From sequence record KM657822: DNA of 64,000 nt. One strand, written 5' to 3'. The number at the start of each line of letters is the position of its first letter. Position 1 is the stretch's first letter. The translations under genes and the position numbers were made by a program. Shown here piece after piece: positions 16,978 to 30,796 of this stretch. Origin of the DNA: Escherichia phage vB_EcoM-VpaE1. The notes beneath the pieces are model-generated. The model saw nothing but the letters and a program-made list of their open reading frames with translations, had not been told where the DNA came from and made no database searches.

Positions 16978-17376
16978 ATGAAAACAGAATCTAGAGTAAT
17001 TAATGGCAAGAAAGTAAATATCGTTCTGCTTGGGGCAAGAGATGGTATTAAGATGTCTATGAAGTTGGGTAAAATTGTTGTCCCAACTTTTGCACAGATG
17101 CTATCAAGTCTGACTGACAAGGGTAAGAAAGAAGCTCCAATGGTTCCATTTAAAGAACTTGTTGAAGCTTGTTTTGACAGAATTGAAGAAATTAACCTTG
17201 AAGAGATGGCTACCTTATTATTTCAAGGGGCAACTGTTGACGACTTCCCACTTAATATTGATACGTACTTCCAAGCAAACTACGGTGAGTTTATTGATTA
17301 CTTAGCATTTGCGCTGGAGGCAAACTTCGGAAGTTTTTTCGAAGCAAGCATTTTCAAAAGCCTAACTTCTCAGTAA
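16978..17376 (+). CDS. tail assembly chaperone
   Basis: 132 aa ORF directly upstream of tape measure; slippery heptamer T_TTT_TTC at 17334-17340. Confidence 0.5.
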   Translation: MKTESRVINGKKVNIVLLGARDGIKMSMKLGKIVVPTFAQMLSSLTDKGKKEAPMVPFKELVEACFDRIEEINLEEMATLLFQGATVDDFPLNIDTYFQANYGEFIDYLAFALEANFGSFFEASIFKSLTSQ

Positions 17377-17378
17377 AC

Positions 17379-17617
17379 ATGGGTAACACTCTACAGACAC
17401 CACTAACTGATGCTGCTGTAGAGGCAACCTATGAAGAAGCAGACGAGATGAAATTTGTGCTTGCTATTTATGGTATGGAAGGGTGTAAAGAAACACTTGA
17501 CCAACTCTTTGCTATGACATTCTCTGATTTATTATCATTGAGACAATTTCTTGAAATTCAGAGGTCGTATAAAGAGGAAATTGCTTACAACGAACTTAGA
17601 AGAGCAGGAAAAATGTA

Positions 17618-17618
<1 letters not shown>
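17379..17618 (+). CDS. tail assembly chaperone extension (likely -1 frameshift product)
   Basis: -1 frame is open from the slippery site into this ORF. Confidence 0.4.
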
Positions 17619-25637
<8,019 letters not shown>

Positions 25638-25639
25638 TA

Positions 25640-26812
25640 ATGGCAGTAGGTGAAATTCAAATTAGTGCCTTGCCTCAAGCAGCCTTACCAATTGACCTTA
25701 GTGATATCTTCCATCTTAAGCAGGGTATTGAGGATAAGAGATGTACTCTTGAGCAATTACTTGCTCCACACTCAAGCCTAAGAAATAACCCTCATGGTGT
25801 TACTAAAACACAAATTGGTTTAGATAATGTTATTAACGCCCTTCAGTTAGTTGCTGCAAATAACTTATCAGATATTGTTAATGTAGCTGAGGCAAGAGCA
25901 AATCTACAGATTATGTCTTCAGAAGAGGTTAATAACCTTGTTCAACAGCATATTCAGGACAAGAGCAACCCACACAATACAACTAAGGCACAGGTTGGTT
26001 TAAGTAATGTTCAGAACTGGACAACATCTAACCTTTATAATGAGGATGCAGATAAGTACGCTACAGCAAGAGCAGTAAATAACTTGTACAAGGCTGTTCA
26101 GGCTTCCTATCCAGTAGGTACTATCCATCTTTCCATGAACTCTGCAAACCCCTCTACATATTTAATTTGTGGAGGTACTTGGGAGTTAGTTTCAAAGGGT
26201 AGAGCATTGGTTGGTTATGACTCTGACACAAGACCAGCAGGTTCTGTATTTGGTGCTTCAACTGTCACTTTGTCAGTTAATAACATGCCTCAACACTCTC
26301 ACTCTGTGTCTCTTAGTGGTGGTGGTCATACTCATAATGCAACGGTGTCAATTTCAGCTTTTGACTATGGGGCTAAGACTACCAACTCTTTTGACTATGG
26401 AACAAAGGATACCAATACAACTGGTAACCATACACACAACGTATCAGGGAACACAAGTACAAATGGCACTCACAACCATGATGTATACCCTAGAGAAAAT
26501 GATGGTACTGGTAATGCTGTAGCTGACTCTGATGGTGGTGGTGCATGGAGAACATCAAGAACATCTAGTGACGGTGCACACTCACATAGTTTTAGCGTTA
26601 CATCTGGTACATCTGGTAACCACAGCCACTCTGTAGGTATTGGTGCTCACAGCCACACAGTCGGTATTGGTTCACATACACACAGTGGTGCTGTGACAGT
26701 TTCTTCTTCTGAGCATACACATAGTGGCAATACGAATAGTGTTGGTGGAGGTCAGGCAGTTAATATTGAACAGCCATCCTTCGTACTGTATGTATGGCAG
26801 AGAACAGCTTAA
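25640..26812 (+). CDS. tail fiber protein with C-terminal His-x-His repeats
   Basis: C-terminal [16 protein letters not shown] ... [25 protein letters not shown] repeats; N-terminus Asn/Gln-rich. Confidence 0.6.
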
Positions 26813-26821
26813 TTTCTTTAC

Positions 26822-26843
26822 AGGGGCTTTCAAGCCCCTTTTA
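26822..26843 (+). terminator. terminator-like hairpin between the two fiber genes
   Basis: AGGGGCTT-tcaa-GCCCCT followed by TTTT. Confidence 0.4.
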
Positions 26844-26858
26844 AGAGGAAAATTTATA

Positions 26859-29213
26859 ATGGCAGATTACAATTTGAGTGAATTAAACTCAATCGATACA
26901 ATCCGTTCAGATGACCTTCTTCATGTCAGAGTTAAAAAGAGACCTGAAATGCTTGGCGATGAAGACCGTCGAATGACTTATCAAGATTTATTAGCGTCTT
27001 TTAAACTTGAAAGATTTGTTCAGATTGCTGGTAGTAATATGACAGGTGACTTAGGGATTGTTAAGTTACTTTATGGTGGTAAGGCAGTATTTGACCCAAC
27101 AGGCTCTTCTGAGATTAATATTGGGGATGTTTTAAAGACTTTTAAAATTAACGCAAATGGTCTTAGGCTAACTATTACAGATGCTTCAAGGTCAGCAACT
27201 GTTTATCATACTCTGAATAAACCAAGTCCTAATGAACTTGGGATGAGAACTAATGAAGAGAATGATGCAAGATATGCAAGGTTGGCTGTAACAAATAACT
27301 TCAACATTAGGCAAGCAATTGTCGTTGATGGTGAGCAGTTAACTCTTAAGAAAGCAACTAATGCAGGAGCTTCATATATTCAGGGTAGAAATGCTAATAA
27401 CCAGCAAACGTGGTATGTTGGACAGGGAAATGCAAACAACACTAATGTTTATCTGTACAATCATGCCACTGGCTCAATGTTAACCCTTGACGCAACAGCG
27501 TCATTTAACAAGACACTAAGAGTCATGGGTCAAGTTCAGCCTTCTGACTTCTCTAACTTAGATGCTAGATACTTCACTCAGACAGTTGCTAATCAGAGGT
27601 TTGCACAGTTAACTGCGAATAATACTTTTAGAGGCGTGAATACATTTAATCAAATCCTATCAATTGAGACGAATAGTGCAGCCTTAAGGTTAAAAAATAC
27701 TGTAGCTAATGGTGCACTGTACATTAAAGGTGAAAGTAATGATGGCTCTAGTAAGTGGTATGTAGGTAATGGTGATAATACACCTGCCGTATTAATTCAC
27801 AACTATACATATGGGTCTAATCTTAGACTCGACAATGGTTATGTTGAGGTTAATAAGCAACTTAAAGTCGTTGGTCAAGTTCAACCTTCTGATTGGACTA
27901 ACATTGACTCTAGATATATTCCGGCAGGAACTTTGAGTAATCTTGCTAAACTTAATGTATCTAATACTTTCACAAATGTGCAAACTATTGTGTCTGACAA
28001 CGAGGGTTTGGTATTAAGGAGCTTAACACAGGGACAGCCACAATATATCCGTGGTGTTGATACTGCGAATGTATCTAGGTGGTGGCTGGGCGCAGGAAGT
28101 GCTAATTCTAACGTGGTAACCTTGAGCAACAGCTTTTCAGGCACTCAAATTTCCCTAGAGCCAACATTGGTTAGTATGAATAAGAACCTGTATATTAATG
28201 GGCAGGTTCAACCACAAGATTGGTCTAACTTAGATGCTAGATACTTTGTTAAAACTAAGTTATTAGACCAATCCTTAATGACTGTAACTGTAAATAACCT
28301 CGAAGACCACCCAGCATTTAATCTTGGGTACTCAGGCTTTGTCAGAAACAATGGTGTTACTGACGGCTTGAGGGATTTGGCAATTCATGTTGCACACTCT
28401 AGCAAGACTGCTGCATATGCAAGAGGTATCTCTTTTTCGTATGGCTCAATGGGTTTAGGGGTATTCACCTATGCCTATGATGACGAGGGTGAATACGCTG
28501 GAGAAGCACAGCTTTATACAACTGATTTTAAACCAACACCTTCAGATATTGGTGCATATACTAAAGCTGAAACTGACCAGAAGATTGCACAGGCAGTAAG
28601 TGACTCTACAGACCTTAATAAAATCTATCCAGTAGGTATTGTAACGTGGTTTAATAGTAACGTTGACCCTAATACAGCACTTCCTGGTCTAACTTGGACG
28701 TACCTGAATAATGGTGTTGGTAGAACTATCAGAATCGCAGCAGCAAATGGTTCAGATGTTGCTACAACAGGTGGTTCAGATTCTGTGACGCTATCTGTTG
28801 GTAACTTGCCATCACACACCCATAGTTTCTCTGCTACCACTTCATCTTTTGATTATGGTACGAAGGGAACTAACACTACAGGTGGACACACTCACTCTGG
28901 TAGTGGTTCTACTAGCACAAATGGTGAGCACAGCCACTACATCGAGGCATGGAATGGTACTGGTAGAGGTGGTGATAAGATGTCATCATATGCCGTATCA
29001 TACAGGACGGGTGGGAGTAACACTAATGCAGCAGGGAACCATAGTCATACTTTCTCTTTTGGTACTAGCGGTGCTGGCGACCATTCCCACTCTGTAGGTA
29101 TTGGTGCTCACAGTCACACAGTCAGTGGTAATACTGGTGGTACAGGTTCTGGTTCAGCATTTAGTGTTACCAACCAGTTCTACAAGTTAATGGCTTGGGT
29201 AAGAACTGCTTAA
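26859..29213 (+). CDS. large tail fiber protein with internal repeats and His-x-His C-terminus
   Basis: Start ATG 26859 behind AGAGGA; three ~115 aa repeats each ending GQVQPSDW(S/T)N(L/I)D(A/S)RY; C-terminus shares the FDYGTK-TNTTG-HTH module with the upstream fiber. Confidence 0.65.
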
Positions 29214-29292
29214 TCCTTTGTTGACTGATTGTTAAGATGGTGTTAATATTCTTTATGGGTATTCTCACCATCTTGGCTGATGAGGTGATTAA

Positions 29293-29487
29293 ATGCCTAC
29301 AATCCTAGCAATTCTTCTAAAAAATCTAGGTAGCTTCTTCTGGAAACTCATTTTATCCCTTCTAAGTGAATACATGATTGAGAAAGTGTTCTTTAAGCTT
29401 GCAAGATACCTTGCGAGTAAAACAGACACGCCTATCGATGATGAGTTCGTAGATAACTTAGAAAAAGCTTTTAAGGGGGAGAAATAA
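29293..29487 (+). CDS. small membrane protein (holin-like candidate)
   Basis: 64 aa, hydrophobic N-terminal half, charged C-terminus. Confidence 0.3.
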   Translation: MPTILAILLKNLGSFFWKLILSLLSEYMIEKVFFKLARYLASKTDTPIDDEFVDNLEKAFKGEK

Positions 29488-29859: not shown

Positions 29860-29865
29860 AGTTTA

Positions 29866-29893
29866 AGGCTCCTTTTTACGGGAGCCTTTTTTG
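29866..29893 (+). terminator. rho-independent terminator between convergent genes
   Basis: AGGCTCC-tttttacg-GGAGCCT followed by TTTTTTG; - strand thyA ends 4 nt away. Confidence 0.55.
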
Positions 29894-29896
29894 TTT

Positions 29897-30796
29897 CTAC
29901 TTACCTACTGACAAAGGTGCTTCAATCTTTCCTGCATGTTGGTAGTTACTAATTCCACCGATAAAGTCACTTGCAGTAAGATGTTTTAAGTCACTTAAAG
30001 TGTTAAGCTGTACACCAATCTCAAAAGTAGGTGCATGAAACTCTTCATTGTTCATCAGTTCATAGACCTGCTTCATATGGTTATGATAAATCTGAGTATC
30101 TCCAAAGACACCTATCAAGTATCGTGGAGTGTATCCAGTCATCTTACAAAGAACTTCTAAGATGAAGCCATAAGACGCAATATTAAACGGAAGTCCTAAA
30201 AAGGTGTCTACAGAACGCTGATACCATTGTAAGTCAACTTCACCTTCATTAGTAATATAAATCTGAAACAGAACATGGCAAGGTGCTAAAGCCATCGAGT
30301 TAGCTGAAATATCTGCTGCATTCCAAGCATTAACAAGCATGTAGCGGTCTGTAATATCACCCTTCATCTTCGTTACTAAGGTCTCTAACTGGTCTACAAC
30401 ACAACCATTATGACCCTCAAAGTTTCTCCACTGAACCCCGTAGATTCTACCACCTGCATCCTCTAACCAGTCTTGTTCAGAAGAGTAGTTAGAGCTTAAC
30501 CAACGTTTAAAATCATCTGACCAGATAGTCCAGCGTTCCCCATCATTTTCACCCCAAGTACGGTAACGGAGTTCACCAAGTTTATTCTCACCATTCAGGA
30601 ACCATAAAGCTTCCCCAATAACTTGCCGTGTAAACACCTGTTTAGATGTTAAGAGTGGAAAACCAGTCCTCATATCAAAACGAAATTGTGGTGGAGCAAA
30701 TGCAGAGATAACATCTCCAGTTCGTGTAGTACGCAGTTCACCAACGGATAAAACATGGTTCAGGATATTTTTGTAACTTGAATCTGCTTGTGACAT
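29897..30796 (-). CDS. thyA: thymidylate synthase
   Basis: ThyA signatures: RTGTG-like RTTRTGD, FPLLTSK, IYGVQWR, active-site Cys in ALAPCH, WYQRSVDTFLGLPFNIASY. Confidence 0.9.
   Translation of the reverse strand: MSQADSSYKNILNHVLSVGELRTTRTGDVISAFAPPQFRFDMRTGFPLLTSKQVFTRQVIGEALWFLNGENKLGELRYRTWGENDGERWTIWSDDFKRWLSSNYSSEQDWLEDAGGRIYGVQWRNFEGHNGCVVDQLETLVTKMKGDITDRYMLVNAWNAADISANSMALAPCHVLFQIYITNEGEVDLQWYQRSVDTFLGLPFNIASYGFILEVLCKMTGYTPRYLIGVFGDTQIYHNHMKQVYELMNNEEFHAPTFEIGVQLNTLSDLKHLTASDFIGGISNYQHAGKIEAPLSVGK

Follow-up and report, generated by a model that had tools for sequence, protein, structure and literature searches.

Adjacent fiber genes of Escherichia phage vB_EcoM-VpaE1 and their probable T4 gp37-type tips, shaft repeats and exchange joints

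Two adjacent fiber genes lie on the + strand of a 64-kb stretch of Escherichia phage vB_EcoM-VpaE1 (sequence record KM657822), termed the window here, at 25640-26812 and 26859-29213. Both end in a module rich in His-x-His (HxH) motifs and the longer contains internal repeats, which raises the question of what these fibers look like, what they bind and how their parts are related to each other. The two proteins are very probably the fibers by which a Felixounavirus (Felix O1-like) E. coli myophage, from its baseplate, binds its receptors: a short tail fiber (STF) and a long tail fiber (LTF). Both would be trimers with T4 gp37-type tips, the LTF having in addition a shaft of three T7 gp17-type domains, and the locus would contain joints for exchange. 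Similarity to T4 gp37 was reported for both fibers of Felix O1 in 2010 (PMC3185647) and for both fibers of VpaE1 in 2015 (PMC4690856). The finding is therefore correct but ordinary, having been published for the genus in 2010, 2015 and 2025. Two elements may be unpublished, namely a 287-nt cassette resembling T4 gene 37 and the role of the repeat cores as swappable cassettes. The features of the locus are listed in Table 1.

Table 1. Features of the fiber locus in window nucleotides and protein residues.
Feature	Nucleotides	Strand	Residues	Evidence
LTF-platform protein, 100 aa	25335..25637	+		99% identical to Bas63 gp25; matches phrog_4141
STF gene, 390 aa	25640..26812	+		75% identity with Bas63 gp26; phrog_2097 tail fiber E = 5e-137
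STF N-terminal putative baseplate-binding domain and helix-turn motifs			1-~145	
STF collar			~146-218 and C-terminal 365-390	Pfam Gp10_C E = 2.4e-17, 64.6 bits (cutoff 27)
STF needle-plus-head region, nine HxH	26294..26731	+	219-364 (whole needle and head)	T4 gp37 alignment
GC-rich hairpin GGGGCTTTCAAGCCCC + TTTT, between STF stop and LTF start	26823..26842	+		Sequence inspection
LTF gene, 784 aa	26859..29213	+		62% identity with Bas63 gp27; phrog_4277 full length E = 0
LTF repeat 1, PF20744 / T7 gp17-like, hypervariable core	27228..27572	+	124-238	
LTF repeat 2	27573..27917	+	239-353	
LTF repeat 3	27918..28244	+	354-462	
LTF conserved pre-tip region and collar	28539..28814	+	~561-652	Aligns with T4 gp37 collar
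LTF needle and head, six HxH	28815..29123	+	653-755	T4 gp37 alignment; PF03335 34.9 bits (cutoff 20)
T4-like needle-plus-head cassette, 287 nt	28836..29122	+		93.0% nt identical to T4 gene 37
LTF C-terminal return segment, 29 aa + stop	29124..29213	+		96-100% aa identity in six relatives

Bas63, Felix O1, AYO145A and EC106 have their genes arranged as here: wedge 2 - wedge 1 - platform - STF - LTF - two small ORFs - convergent thyA/frd. The locus is 94% identical in nucleotides to Felixounavirus EC106, and 262 phage records match it. STF and LTF are orthologous to gp76 and gp77 of Felix O1, to gp74 and gp75 of VpaE1, and to gp26 and gp27 of Bas63 (JohannRWettstein; comparison record MZ501086, from the BASEL supplement), in the same order. 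Protein identity to Bas63 gp23-gp27 is 98, 97, 99, 75 and 62%, respectively; the flanking baseplate proteins are 97-99% identical, and the LTF is 784 aa long in both phages. Bas63 gp25 has been described as the LTF platform, a homolog of T4 gp9 with the same function (PMC12609058), and its counterpart here would anchor the long fiber to the baseplate wedge. The boundary between the two fiber genes implied by the preliminary description, a GTG at 26724 opening an ORF of 829 aa, was corrected. That ORF overlaps the STF and was rejected. The true start is the ATG at 26859, which relatives annotate likewise and which follows a GC hairpin, a T run and the ribosome-binding site AAGAGGA. The hairpin appears terminator-like or attenuator-like in its sequence, and a rho-independent terminator is annotated at the equivalent position in AYO145A. 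It was missed by a simple terminator scan, which requires five T residues where TTTT is present.

The earlier suggestion that the His-rich module is reminiscent of T4 fiber tips proved to reflect true homology. Residues ~641-763 of the LTF match the T4 gp37 tip structure 2XGF with E = 6e-52, and STF aa 146-362 match the whole chain of that structure (18-228) with E = 2e-27. Every HxH motif that has a T4 counterpart aligns with the iron-binding histidines of 2XGF, the T4 gp37 tip containing seven irons (PMC6957217). In the LTF, the motifs at aa 653, 677, 691, 728, 742 and 751 correspond to H883, H915, H929, H966, H980 and H989, that is, to the first six of the seven motifs of T4 gp37, while the seventh His box of T4 is absent. 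The STF contains HxH at aa 219, 230, 264, 278, 314, 328, 337, 346 and 359, seven of which align with all seven iron-site motifs. The two extra motifs (230 and 359) are located in insertions, one in a descending and the other in an ascending strand. The refuting outcome named in the preliminary description, a region that is disordered or not conserved, did not occur: among 46 STF homologs, the motifs at 230, 314 and 346 are invariant (46/46) and that at 278 is present in 44, with a total per homolog of 6 to 11 and a mode of 9. Together, the alignments support a T4 gp37-type tip in both fibers, with a collar, a six-stranded HxH needle and a head. From homology to 2XGF and to the Bas63 cryo-EM structure (PMC12609058), we infer a homotrimer with metal on its axis. 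The Gp10_C match of the LTF is weak, at 25.3 bits just under the cutoff of 27. Despite having the same motifs, the STF is not among the matches to PF03335 (Phage_fiber, a His-box repeat) at E <= 0.1. The LTF pre-tip region and collar are 88-100% identical in nucleotides across seven relatives, except for one NBEco004 bin at 86%. The return segment that follows the needle is nearly invariant among Felixounaviruses. It should run back into the collar, as happens in T4 gp37, where D10 includes residues 1010-1026 (PMC6957217).

An AF2 monomer model of the STF, built on the alignment of 46 sequences, reached a moderate pLDDT of 65 and pTM of 0.26, with long strands at 222-241 and 346-364. In a Foldseek search of the PDB with this model, only the collar matched, to the C-terminal domain of T4 gp10 (2FKK, 2FL8) with a probability of 0.96-0.97; no whole-chain match was significant, and matches of the long hairpin to pore-forming toxins were judged meaningless. 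Such an outcome is expected if the chains of the trimer are intertwined. The needle geometry is therefore predicted from sequence homology.

The proposed architecture can be followed along the chain. Each fiber protein would trimerise and dock on the baseplate by its conserved N-terminus, the STF on wedge protein 2 and the LTF on the small platform protein encoded directly upstream. In the tip, each chain is predicted to leave the collar, descend as one of the six strands of the needle, form the small head that touches the receptor, and subsequently return to the collar. At each HxH, three chains would contribute six histidines that surround a single metal ion, which in T4 is Fe2+. Six ions are predicted in the LTF and nine in the STF, and these sites would rivet the thin needle together. 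The LTF shaft would be lengthened by three tandem, beta-structured PF20744 domains with conserved linkers between them. The linkers and His boxes would act as recombination joints, at which hypervariable repeat cores and head cassettes could be exchanged between phages, thereby retargeting the fiber. For annotation, the gain lies in the LTF start at ATG 26859, in the probable roles of the STF, LTF and platform genes, and in the six and nine predicted metal sites.

This architecture was compared with known systems. The cryo-EM structure of Bas63 (Sci Adv 2025) contains an STF and an LTF, each with a collar, an HxH needle and a head, and the LTF has beta-helix repeats (PMC12609058). [quoted passage not shown] The differences lie in the tip and repeat-core alleles (75% and 62% identity overall), in the HxH number of the STF, nine here versus seven in Bas63, and in the LTF head, which is the T4 allele here and a different, HHxH-containing one in Bas63. 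T4 gp37 D10-D11 (2XGF) likewise has a collar, a six-stranded needle, axial HxH iron sites and a receptor-binding head; however, the similarity is confined to the tip, and elsewhere gp37, a protein of 1026 aa, shows no sequence relationship to the LTF. Apart from the missing seventh His box, the LTF has another C-terminal return segment and no gp38 or gp57A homologs, and it is a single protein directly on the baseplate, whereas the T4 fiber is kinked and made of four proteins. The region ~369-435 of T7 gp17 (PDB 4A0T, 7BOZ) is homologous to each LTF repeat core, but T7 has one such region followed by a C-terminal part dissimilar to the LTF, in which three in tandem are followed by a T4-type tip. 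The collar before the needle is shared with the C-terminal domain of T4 gp10, its fold being common to gp10, gp12 and gp11, although gp10 has no HxH needle inserted in the collar. Shigella phage Sf14 (Ounavirinae, Mooglevirus) has two single-protein fibers, gp52 and gp53, which lie retracted against the sheath. In the longer one the distal tip resembles that of T4 gp37, and chaperone homologs were not detected (PMC11821841). Sf14 belongs to another genus and is likened here by description, not by detailed sequence comparison.

In phmmer searches, T4 gp38 gave a best E-value of 0.21 in the window and 0.19 in the complete EC106 genome, and T4 gp57A gave 0.59 and 0.034, respectively; no significant match to a gp38/Tfa-type or gp57A-type chaperone was obtained in either. 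Dependence on gp38 and gp57A is an accessory feature of T4 and not of the fold, and the LTF tip would be independent of these chaperones. Folding of the LTF may differ from that in T4, because the seventh His box is absent and no gp38 or gp57A homolog is detectable.

The part of the LTF that lies closest to T4 is the needle-plus-head cassette. Its counterpart is gp37 aa ~898-993, comprising the needle stem and the receptor-binding head; it begins 5 codons past the first LTF His box and ends at the last one, and 7 of its codons, in ~96 residues, differ from T4. It is nearer to T4 than to several Felixounavirus alleles, and about 17 E. coli Felixounavirus records of roughly 250 carry it. Neither the pairwise cassette identities, which interleave T4-type and Felixounavirus sequences, nor GC3, which is uninformative for this His/Gly/Ser-rich segment, point to a direction of transfer. 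Comparison of fiber loci among related phages, proposed in the preliminary description, revealed mosaics with breakpoints in conserved linkers and His boxes. The N-termini, collar and C-terminal tail are at least 88% identical, save a few NBEco004 bins at 82-87%, while the repeat cores and heads drop to 38-55%. In the N-terminal bins of seven relatives, amino acid identity is at least 90% except in one NBEco004 STF bin (87%), and nucleotide identity is 82-99%. A tentative reading treats the cassette as a mobile unit for receptor binding. It would have moved recently, and probably on several occasions, between Straboviridae of the T4 type and a small share of the E. coli Felixounaviruses, with joints beside the His boxes. 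The T4 tip would then fold in a single-protein fiber without gp38, gp57A or the seventh iron site, and the shaft domains would be position-independent cassettes that may bind glycans. If this is true, cassette carriers should share the LPS-glucose specificity of T4, possibly with OmpC, and could serve as a natural experiment on the need of the T4 tip for its dedicated chaperone. A cassette between conserved joints would make tips movable between unrelated myophage families and, presumably, functional without T4 chaperones; portable tips bear on host-range engineering and on receptor prediction from sequence.

What the LTF head binds can be approached through this allele. An LPS core sugar, at a terminal glucose-type site, is the likeliest receptor, possibly together with OmpC. 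The Felixounaviruses phiWec172, 174 and 177 carry the cassette at 88.5% nucleotide identity and depend on waaV, waaW and waaG, genes of the LPS outer core (PMC12548472). An alternative is that, with the T4 allele as its head, the fiber relies on OmpC in the way of T4 on K-12 instead of depending solely on LPS. The head differs from its near-identical T4 counterpart only at V941R, N944D, I951V and A955T, and all critical residues of the T4 tip are kept (H929, H931, I933, W936, N937, G938, G940, G942, G943, S947 and Y949). With the exception of W936 and G938, which were critical in combinatorial mutagenesis, these are positions at which alanine substitution abolished plaques in T4 (PMC6957217). 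Of the OmpC-patch residues K945, I951 and Y953, two are kept and the change I951V is conservative (PMC6957217). Against this, V941R and N944D are situated on the tip surface, Felixounaviruses are generally LPS-dependent (PMC8594841; bioRxiv 10.64898/2026.04.02.716166), and in mutants resistant to phiWec172, 174 and 177, which carry the cassette, the changes lie in LPS core genes, not in ompC. The use of OmpC is uncertain because four head residues differ from T4, one of them in the OmpC patch (I951V), and is considered rather unlikely.

Upstream of the tip, the three tandem repeats of ~115 aa described earlier in the LTF were recovered. PF20744 (gp37_trimer) matched in three stretches (E = 7e-66, 218.7 bits, cutoff 21.7), and a repeat HMM found exactly three copies, 115, 115 and 109 aa long with 35-42% pairwise identity, and no additional degenerate copies in the LTF, STF, T4 gp37 or T4 gp36. 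Bas63 LTF has been described with five beta-helix domains (PMC12609058), two of which must be something other than sequence repeats, since the HMM finds only three. TRF detected no DNA-level tandem repeats of the 115-aa units; only three 67-nt repeat ends, spaced 345 and 327 nt, are recognisable in the DNA, and the repeats are therefore old. The repeat profile matches T7 gp17 369-435 with E = 9e-10. The cores have different relatives. That of repeat 1 is 88% identical to NBEco004 R1 and at most 46% to other R1 cores, the closest allele of repeat 2 in the phage collection has 89.6% aa identity (Shigella phage Z31), and the core of repeat 3 is 96-97% identical to EC106 and NBEco005 R3. The Bas63 repeat 1 core matches the repeat 3 cores of other phages and is of the type found at R3 here. 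From these alignments, the repeat cores appear to be swappable cassettes.

This variability leads to a second possibility, compatible with the architecture above, that the three domains are additional lateral glycan-binding sites for O-antigen or core and that their cores determine host range. The variability was called unexpected by the Bas63 authors (PMC12609058). In variability the cores equal the head, with aa identities of 17-47% in core bins versus at least 90% in linkers, and they are exchanged as cassettes, even across repeat positions. However, the homologous T7 gp17 369-435 occupies chain positions ~49-110 of 228 in the crystallised C-terminal fragment, on the N-terminal side of what remains of it, and is not known to be the receptor-binding part of the T7 fiber. 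The variability could also result from relaxed constraint, or from co-variation with the sheath contacts that the retracted fiber makes in Bas63. A glycan-binding role of the repeats is considered rather unlikely.

The module common to the two fibers could also be explained by recent duplication or ongoing gene conversion within the genome, with tips that are near-copies and recognise the same receptor. The genes are adjacent on the same strand and have motifs in common: FDYGTK-TNTTG-HTH was found in both, as first claimed, while GNHSHS is literal in the STF but replaced by GNHSHT and GDHSHS in the LTF. Their DNA has a stretch of 53 nt in common (87% identity), within which 27 nt, at 26626 and 29087, match exactly and encode HSVGIGAHS. 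Yet no further DNA similarity between STF and LTF was detected with 7-nt words, and protein identity in the module is only 40% (BLASTP, 225 aa, E = 1e-21). The head sequences are unrelated, the HxH counts are 9 and 6, and either gene resembles the orthologs of other phages more than the adjacent fiber gene. T4 likewise keeps the 53-nt segment (81.5%), which hence reflects motif constraint. A copy event within this genome is accordingly very improbable. The idea that the shared modules are recombination substrates is supported between phages by the mosaics, but only weakly between the phage's own two genes, with their 53 nt in common.

The last alternative holds that the HxH richness does not stand for axial iron coordination but is compositional or serves a different purpose, for example catalysis, zinc binding or the sensing of pH. 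It can claim that the identity of the metal is carried over from homology and that zinc is the metal of T4 gp12, whose tip is related and contains a collar. It is very improbable, because 9 and 6 motifs were observed in STF and LTF where 1.4 and 0.44 were expected (0 of 20,000 composition-preserving shuffles reached the observed counts), the motifs correspond one-to-one with the histidines coordinating the seven irons in 2XGF, the core sites are invariant in the 46 homologs, and the LTF cassette segment is ~93% identical to the crystallised protein. Axial metal coordination in a T4 gp37-type needle remains the preferred reading.

Two minor observations concern the sequence in and around the genes. 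The STF needle-plus-head region contains short tandem duplications with units of 30 nt and 27 nt. The two small ORFs 3' of the LTF match phrog_402 and phrog_4038, both of unknown function, together with a weak match to DivIC.

The window belongs to a Felixounavirus (Felix O1-like) myophage of E. coli. By nucleotide search, 262 phage records matched 25335-29300, the matching genes being annotated as tail fibers, and the top match was Escherichia phage EC106 (94% identity, 89% query coverage). The locus runs from wedge 2, wedge 1 and a 100-aa protein through the short tail fiber (STF), the long tail fiber (LTF) and two small ORFs to convergent thyA and frd, an order of fiber-locus genes common to the window, Bas63, Felix O1, AYO145A and EC106. 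The first five products are 98, 97, 99, 75 and 62% identical to gp23, gp24, gp25, gp26 and gp27 of Bas63, respectively, a Felixounavirus whose cryo-EM structure assigned the long-fiber platform role to gp25 and the STF and LTF roles to gp26 and gp27 (PMC12609058). Regarding the LTF start, GTG 26724 was returned by the ORF finder (829 aa, with a 26724-26858 extension), which overlaps the STF gene. The true start is ATG 26859; a GC hairpin (26823-26838), a run of T and the RBS, AAGAGGA, lie ahead of it, and relatives are annotated with this start as well. The 844-aa "Tail fiber 1" listed for the phiWec phages (PMC12548472) may carry a similar upstream extension. The hairpin between the fiber genes, at the equivalent spot of which the AYO145A annotation places a rho-independent terminator, could set the STF:LTF expression ratio.

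Features of the fiber locus and its flanks in the window
Feature	Coordinates	Strand	Remarks
Wedge 2 gene	23006-24475		First of the fiber-locus gene series
Wedge 1 gene	24478-25335		Between the wedge 2 gene and the 100-aa protein gene
100-aa protein gene	25335-25637		Upstream of STF; ortholog of Bas63 gp25
STF gene (fiber 1)	25640-26812	+	390 aa
GC-rich hairpin and T run	26823-26842		Gap between STF stop and LTF start; sequence reading
LTF gene (fiber 2)	26859-29213	+	784 aa; start ATG 26859
Small ORF, 64 aa	29293-29487		Directly downstream of LTF; phrog_402, family of unknown function
Small ORF, 123 aa	29488-29859		After the 64-aa ORF; phrog_4038, family of unknown function
Strong terminator-like hairpin	29865-29888		9-bp stem, T run; between the + strand structural block and thyA
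thyA	29897-30796	-	Convergent with the structural block

The preliminary description had proposed that both fibers end in a shared module rich in His-x-His (HxH) that resembles T4 fiber tips, and each of these points was borne out. STF and LTF aligned over 225 aa at 40% identity (BLASTP, E = 1e-21), with FDYGTK-TNTTG-HTH and GIGAHSHTV present in both, while GNHSHS occurs verbatim in STF only, the LTF equivalents being GNHSHT and GDHSHS. Nine HxH motifs are located in STF (aa 219, 230, 264, 278, 314, 328, 337, 346 and 359) and six in LTF (aa 653, 677, 691, 728, 742 and 751), compared with means of 1.4 and 0.44 in composition-preserving shuffles, none of 20,000 of which reached the observed counts. 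The motif, whose non-conservation had been held to count against the proposal, was retained across 46 full-length STF homologs from Felixounavirus, Mooglevirus, Erwinia, Yersinia, Pectobacterium and Hafnia phages: sites 230, 314 and 346 are HxH in all 46, site 278 in 44 and site 219 in 42, and each homolog carries 6 to 11 motifs, most often 9. The crystallised T4 gp37 tip (2XGF) was matched by LTF aa ~641-763 (E = 6e-52) and, over its entire chain, by STF aa 146-362 (E = 2e-27), the STF collar additionally matching T4 gp10. By this homology, the module of both fibers is a T4 gp37-type receptor-binding tip. Observation and interpretation are correct, but describe a published genus feature. In 2010, the C-termini of Felix O1 gp76 and gp77 were described as similar to T4 gp37 (PMC3185647); a 2015 paper said the same of VpaE1 gp74 and gp75 (54% and 37% identity) and noted a conserved N-terminus and a variable middle (PMC4690856). 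In 2025, a collar, an HxH needle with seven (STF) and six (LTF) motifs, a head and, in the LTF, beta-helix repeats were described for Bas63 (PMC12609058); our count for the Bas63 STF is likewise seven.

In T4 gp37, the collar (D10, residues 811-881 and 1010-1026) receives an inserted needle (D11, 882-1009), in which histidines of three chains hold seven iron atoms (PMC6957217). Seven HxH motifs lie in that tip, at 883, 915, 929, 966, 980, 989 and 998; the six of LTF align with the first six, whereas seven of STF align with all seven, leaving 230 and 359 as extra. Both sit in insertions, the descending and the ascending strand having one each, which implies that the STF needle would be lengthened by two collar-adjacent sites. 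In-frame tandem duplications within the STF needle, of a 30-nt unit (FDYG[AT]K...) twice at 26358-26415 and of a 27-nt unit (GxHxHxVGI) ~2.5 times at 26614-26686, look like the route by which needle length and metal-site number change. An AF2 monomer model of STF was of moderate quality (pLDDT 65), its long strands 222-241 and 346-364 containing both extra motifs. Foldseek recovered the collar alone from this model, matching the T4 gp10 C-domain (prob 0.96-0.97), so that the needle geometry is drawn from sequence homology and the published Bas63 map. In a non-exhaustive literature search, no prior statement was found that the nine-site STF needle is the modal form, which may be new.

Window 28836-29122 (LTF aa 660-755), the needle stem and head corresponding to gp37 aa ~898-993, is 93.0% identical to T4 gene 37 in nucleotides without gaps, with 9 synonymous and 7 non-synonymous codon differences. 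This cassette starts five codons past the first His box and extends to the last one; beyond it, no DNA similarity of LTF to T4 was detectable. In the phage collection, 43 records carried it at coverage of at least 80%, all of them E. coli phages, comprising ~17 Felixounaviruses (REP5-12, NBEco005, L27, IME338, phiWec172/174/177, AYO145A and EC106) and ~24 Tequatrovirus records (T4 strains, RB55, RB59, EP01, W143 and F26). Since T4 is closer to the window than AYO145A (88.2%) or EC106 (87.5%), alleles of both phage families interleave. The 93% identity to T4 may also be new, the same search having found no earlier statement. Alanine substitution of H929, H931, I933, N937, G938, G940, G942, G943, S947 or Y949 in the T4 tip abolishes plaques, and W936 tolerates aromatic substitutions alone (PMC6957217); LTF retains all ten residues and W936, its head differing by V941R, N944D, I951V and A955T. 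No homolog of the T4 chaperones gp38 and gp57A was detectable: the best E-values were 0.21 and 0.59 within the window and 0.19 and 0.034 within the complete EC106 genome. This fits the description of Sf14, whose fibers are reported to be single proteins lacking chaperone homologs (PMC11821841). The 64-aa and 123-aa ORFs showed no chaperone signature. AYO145A annotates one transmembrane segment in each of the two conserved small ORFs downstream of LTF.

Three tandem repeats of ~115 aa, as had been described for the larger fiber, were recovered at aa 124-238 (R1, 115 aa), 239-353 (R2, 115 aa) and 354-462 (R3, 109 aa), pairwise 35-42% identical, the repeat ends being visible in the DNA at spacings of 345 and 327 nt. 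PF20744 matched three times (E = 7e-66), and an HMM built from the repeats found exactly three copies in LTF and none in STF, T4 gp36 or T4 gp37; all of ~250 relatives with full coverage have three repeat places per record. When 17 repeat sequences from eight phages were combined into a profile, it matched T7 gp17 residues 369-435 (PDB 4A0T, 7BOZ; E = 9e-10). Each repeat therefore consists of a shaft domain of the T7 gp17 type and, after it, a conserved linker.

The LTF of this phage is a patchwork. Among seven relatives, three parts are conserved at 88-100% identity: the first ~120 aa, aa ~561-652 (pre-tip region plus collar) and the C-terminal ~25 aa, the exceptions being a few bins at 82-87% in NBEco004, the most divergent relative. 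In the repeat cores, in aa ~480-560 and in the head, nucleotide identity drops to 38-55%. The R1 core matches NBEco004 (88% aa), the R2 core has its best match in the collection in Shigella phage Z31 (89.6% aa), the stretch from R3 to aa ~560 is 84-100% identical in nucleotides to EC106 and NBEco005 (91-100% within R3 itself), and the head is 94-96% identical in nucleotides to that of NBEco005. The R1 core of Bas63 (MZ501086, 7079-7411) is 70-72% identical in amino acids (69-79% in nucleotides over ~265 nt) to R3 cores of other phages, the type found at R3 of AYO145A, NBEco004, VpaE1 and the window; against other R1 cores it reaches no more than 39%, although the ends of the repeat do match those of R1. 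Shaft-domain cassettes have therefore changed repeat position, a shuffling for which the literature search again found no prior statement and which may be new. Taken with the mosaic pattern, this implies that the conserved linkers and His boxes behave as recombination joints, a principle attributed for T-even fibers to Tetart et al. (1996, 1998) in PMC3157838. The suggestion that shared modules serve as recombination substrates is accordingly supported between phages; within the genome, STF and LTF offer little for recombination to act on, namely 53 nt that are 87% identical and include a 27-nt exact match.

As a rule, Felixounaviruses depend on LPS (PMC8594841). phiWec172, 174 and 177, which carry the cassette at 88.5% nucleotide identity, lose infectivity on waaV, waaW and waaG mutants, and OmpC dependence was not reported for them (PMC12548472). 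In T4, a role in holding the terminal LPS glucose has been proposed for the conserved cavity residues G940, G942, G943, S947 and Y949 (PMC6957217). On these grounds we favour an LPS-core sugar as the probable LTF receptor; OmpC may be used, though this is less likely. For the STF, whose head is unrelated to that of LTF, the target is presumably a different one.

Elsewhere in the window, 25 + strand tRNA genes are clustered at 1080-5917, as is typical of Felixounavirus, including tRNA-His(gtg) at 4835-4910, any connection with the His-rich fibers being purely speculative. GC skew changes sign at the hairpin between the structural block and thyA. In EC106, an HNH homing endonuclease, which the annotation calls a phage intron, interrupts the large subunit of anaerobic ribonucleotide reductase (17354-20241).
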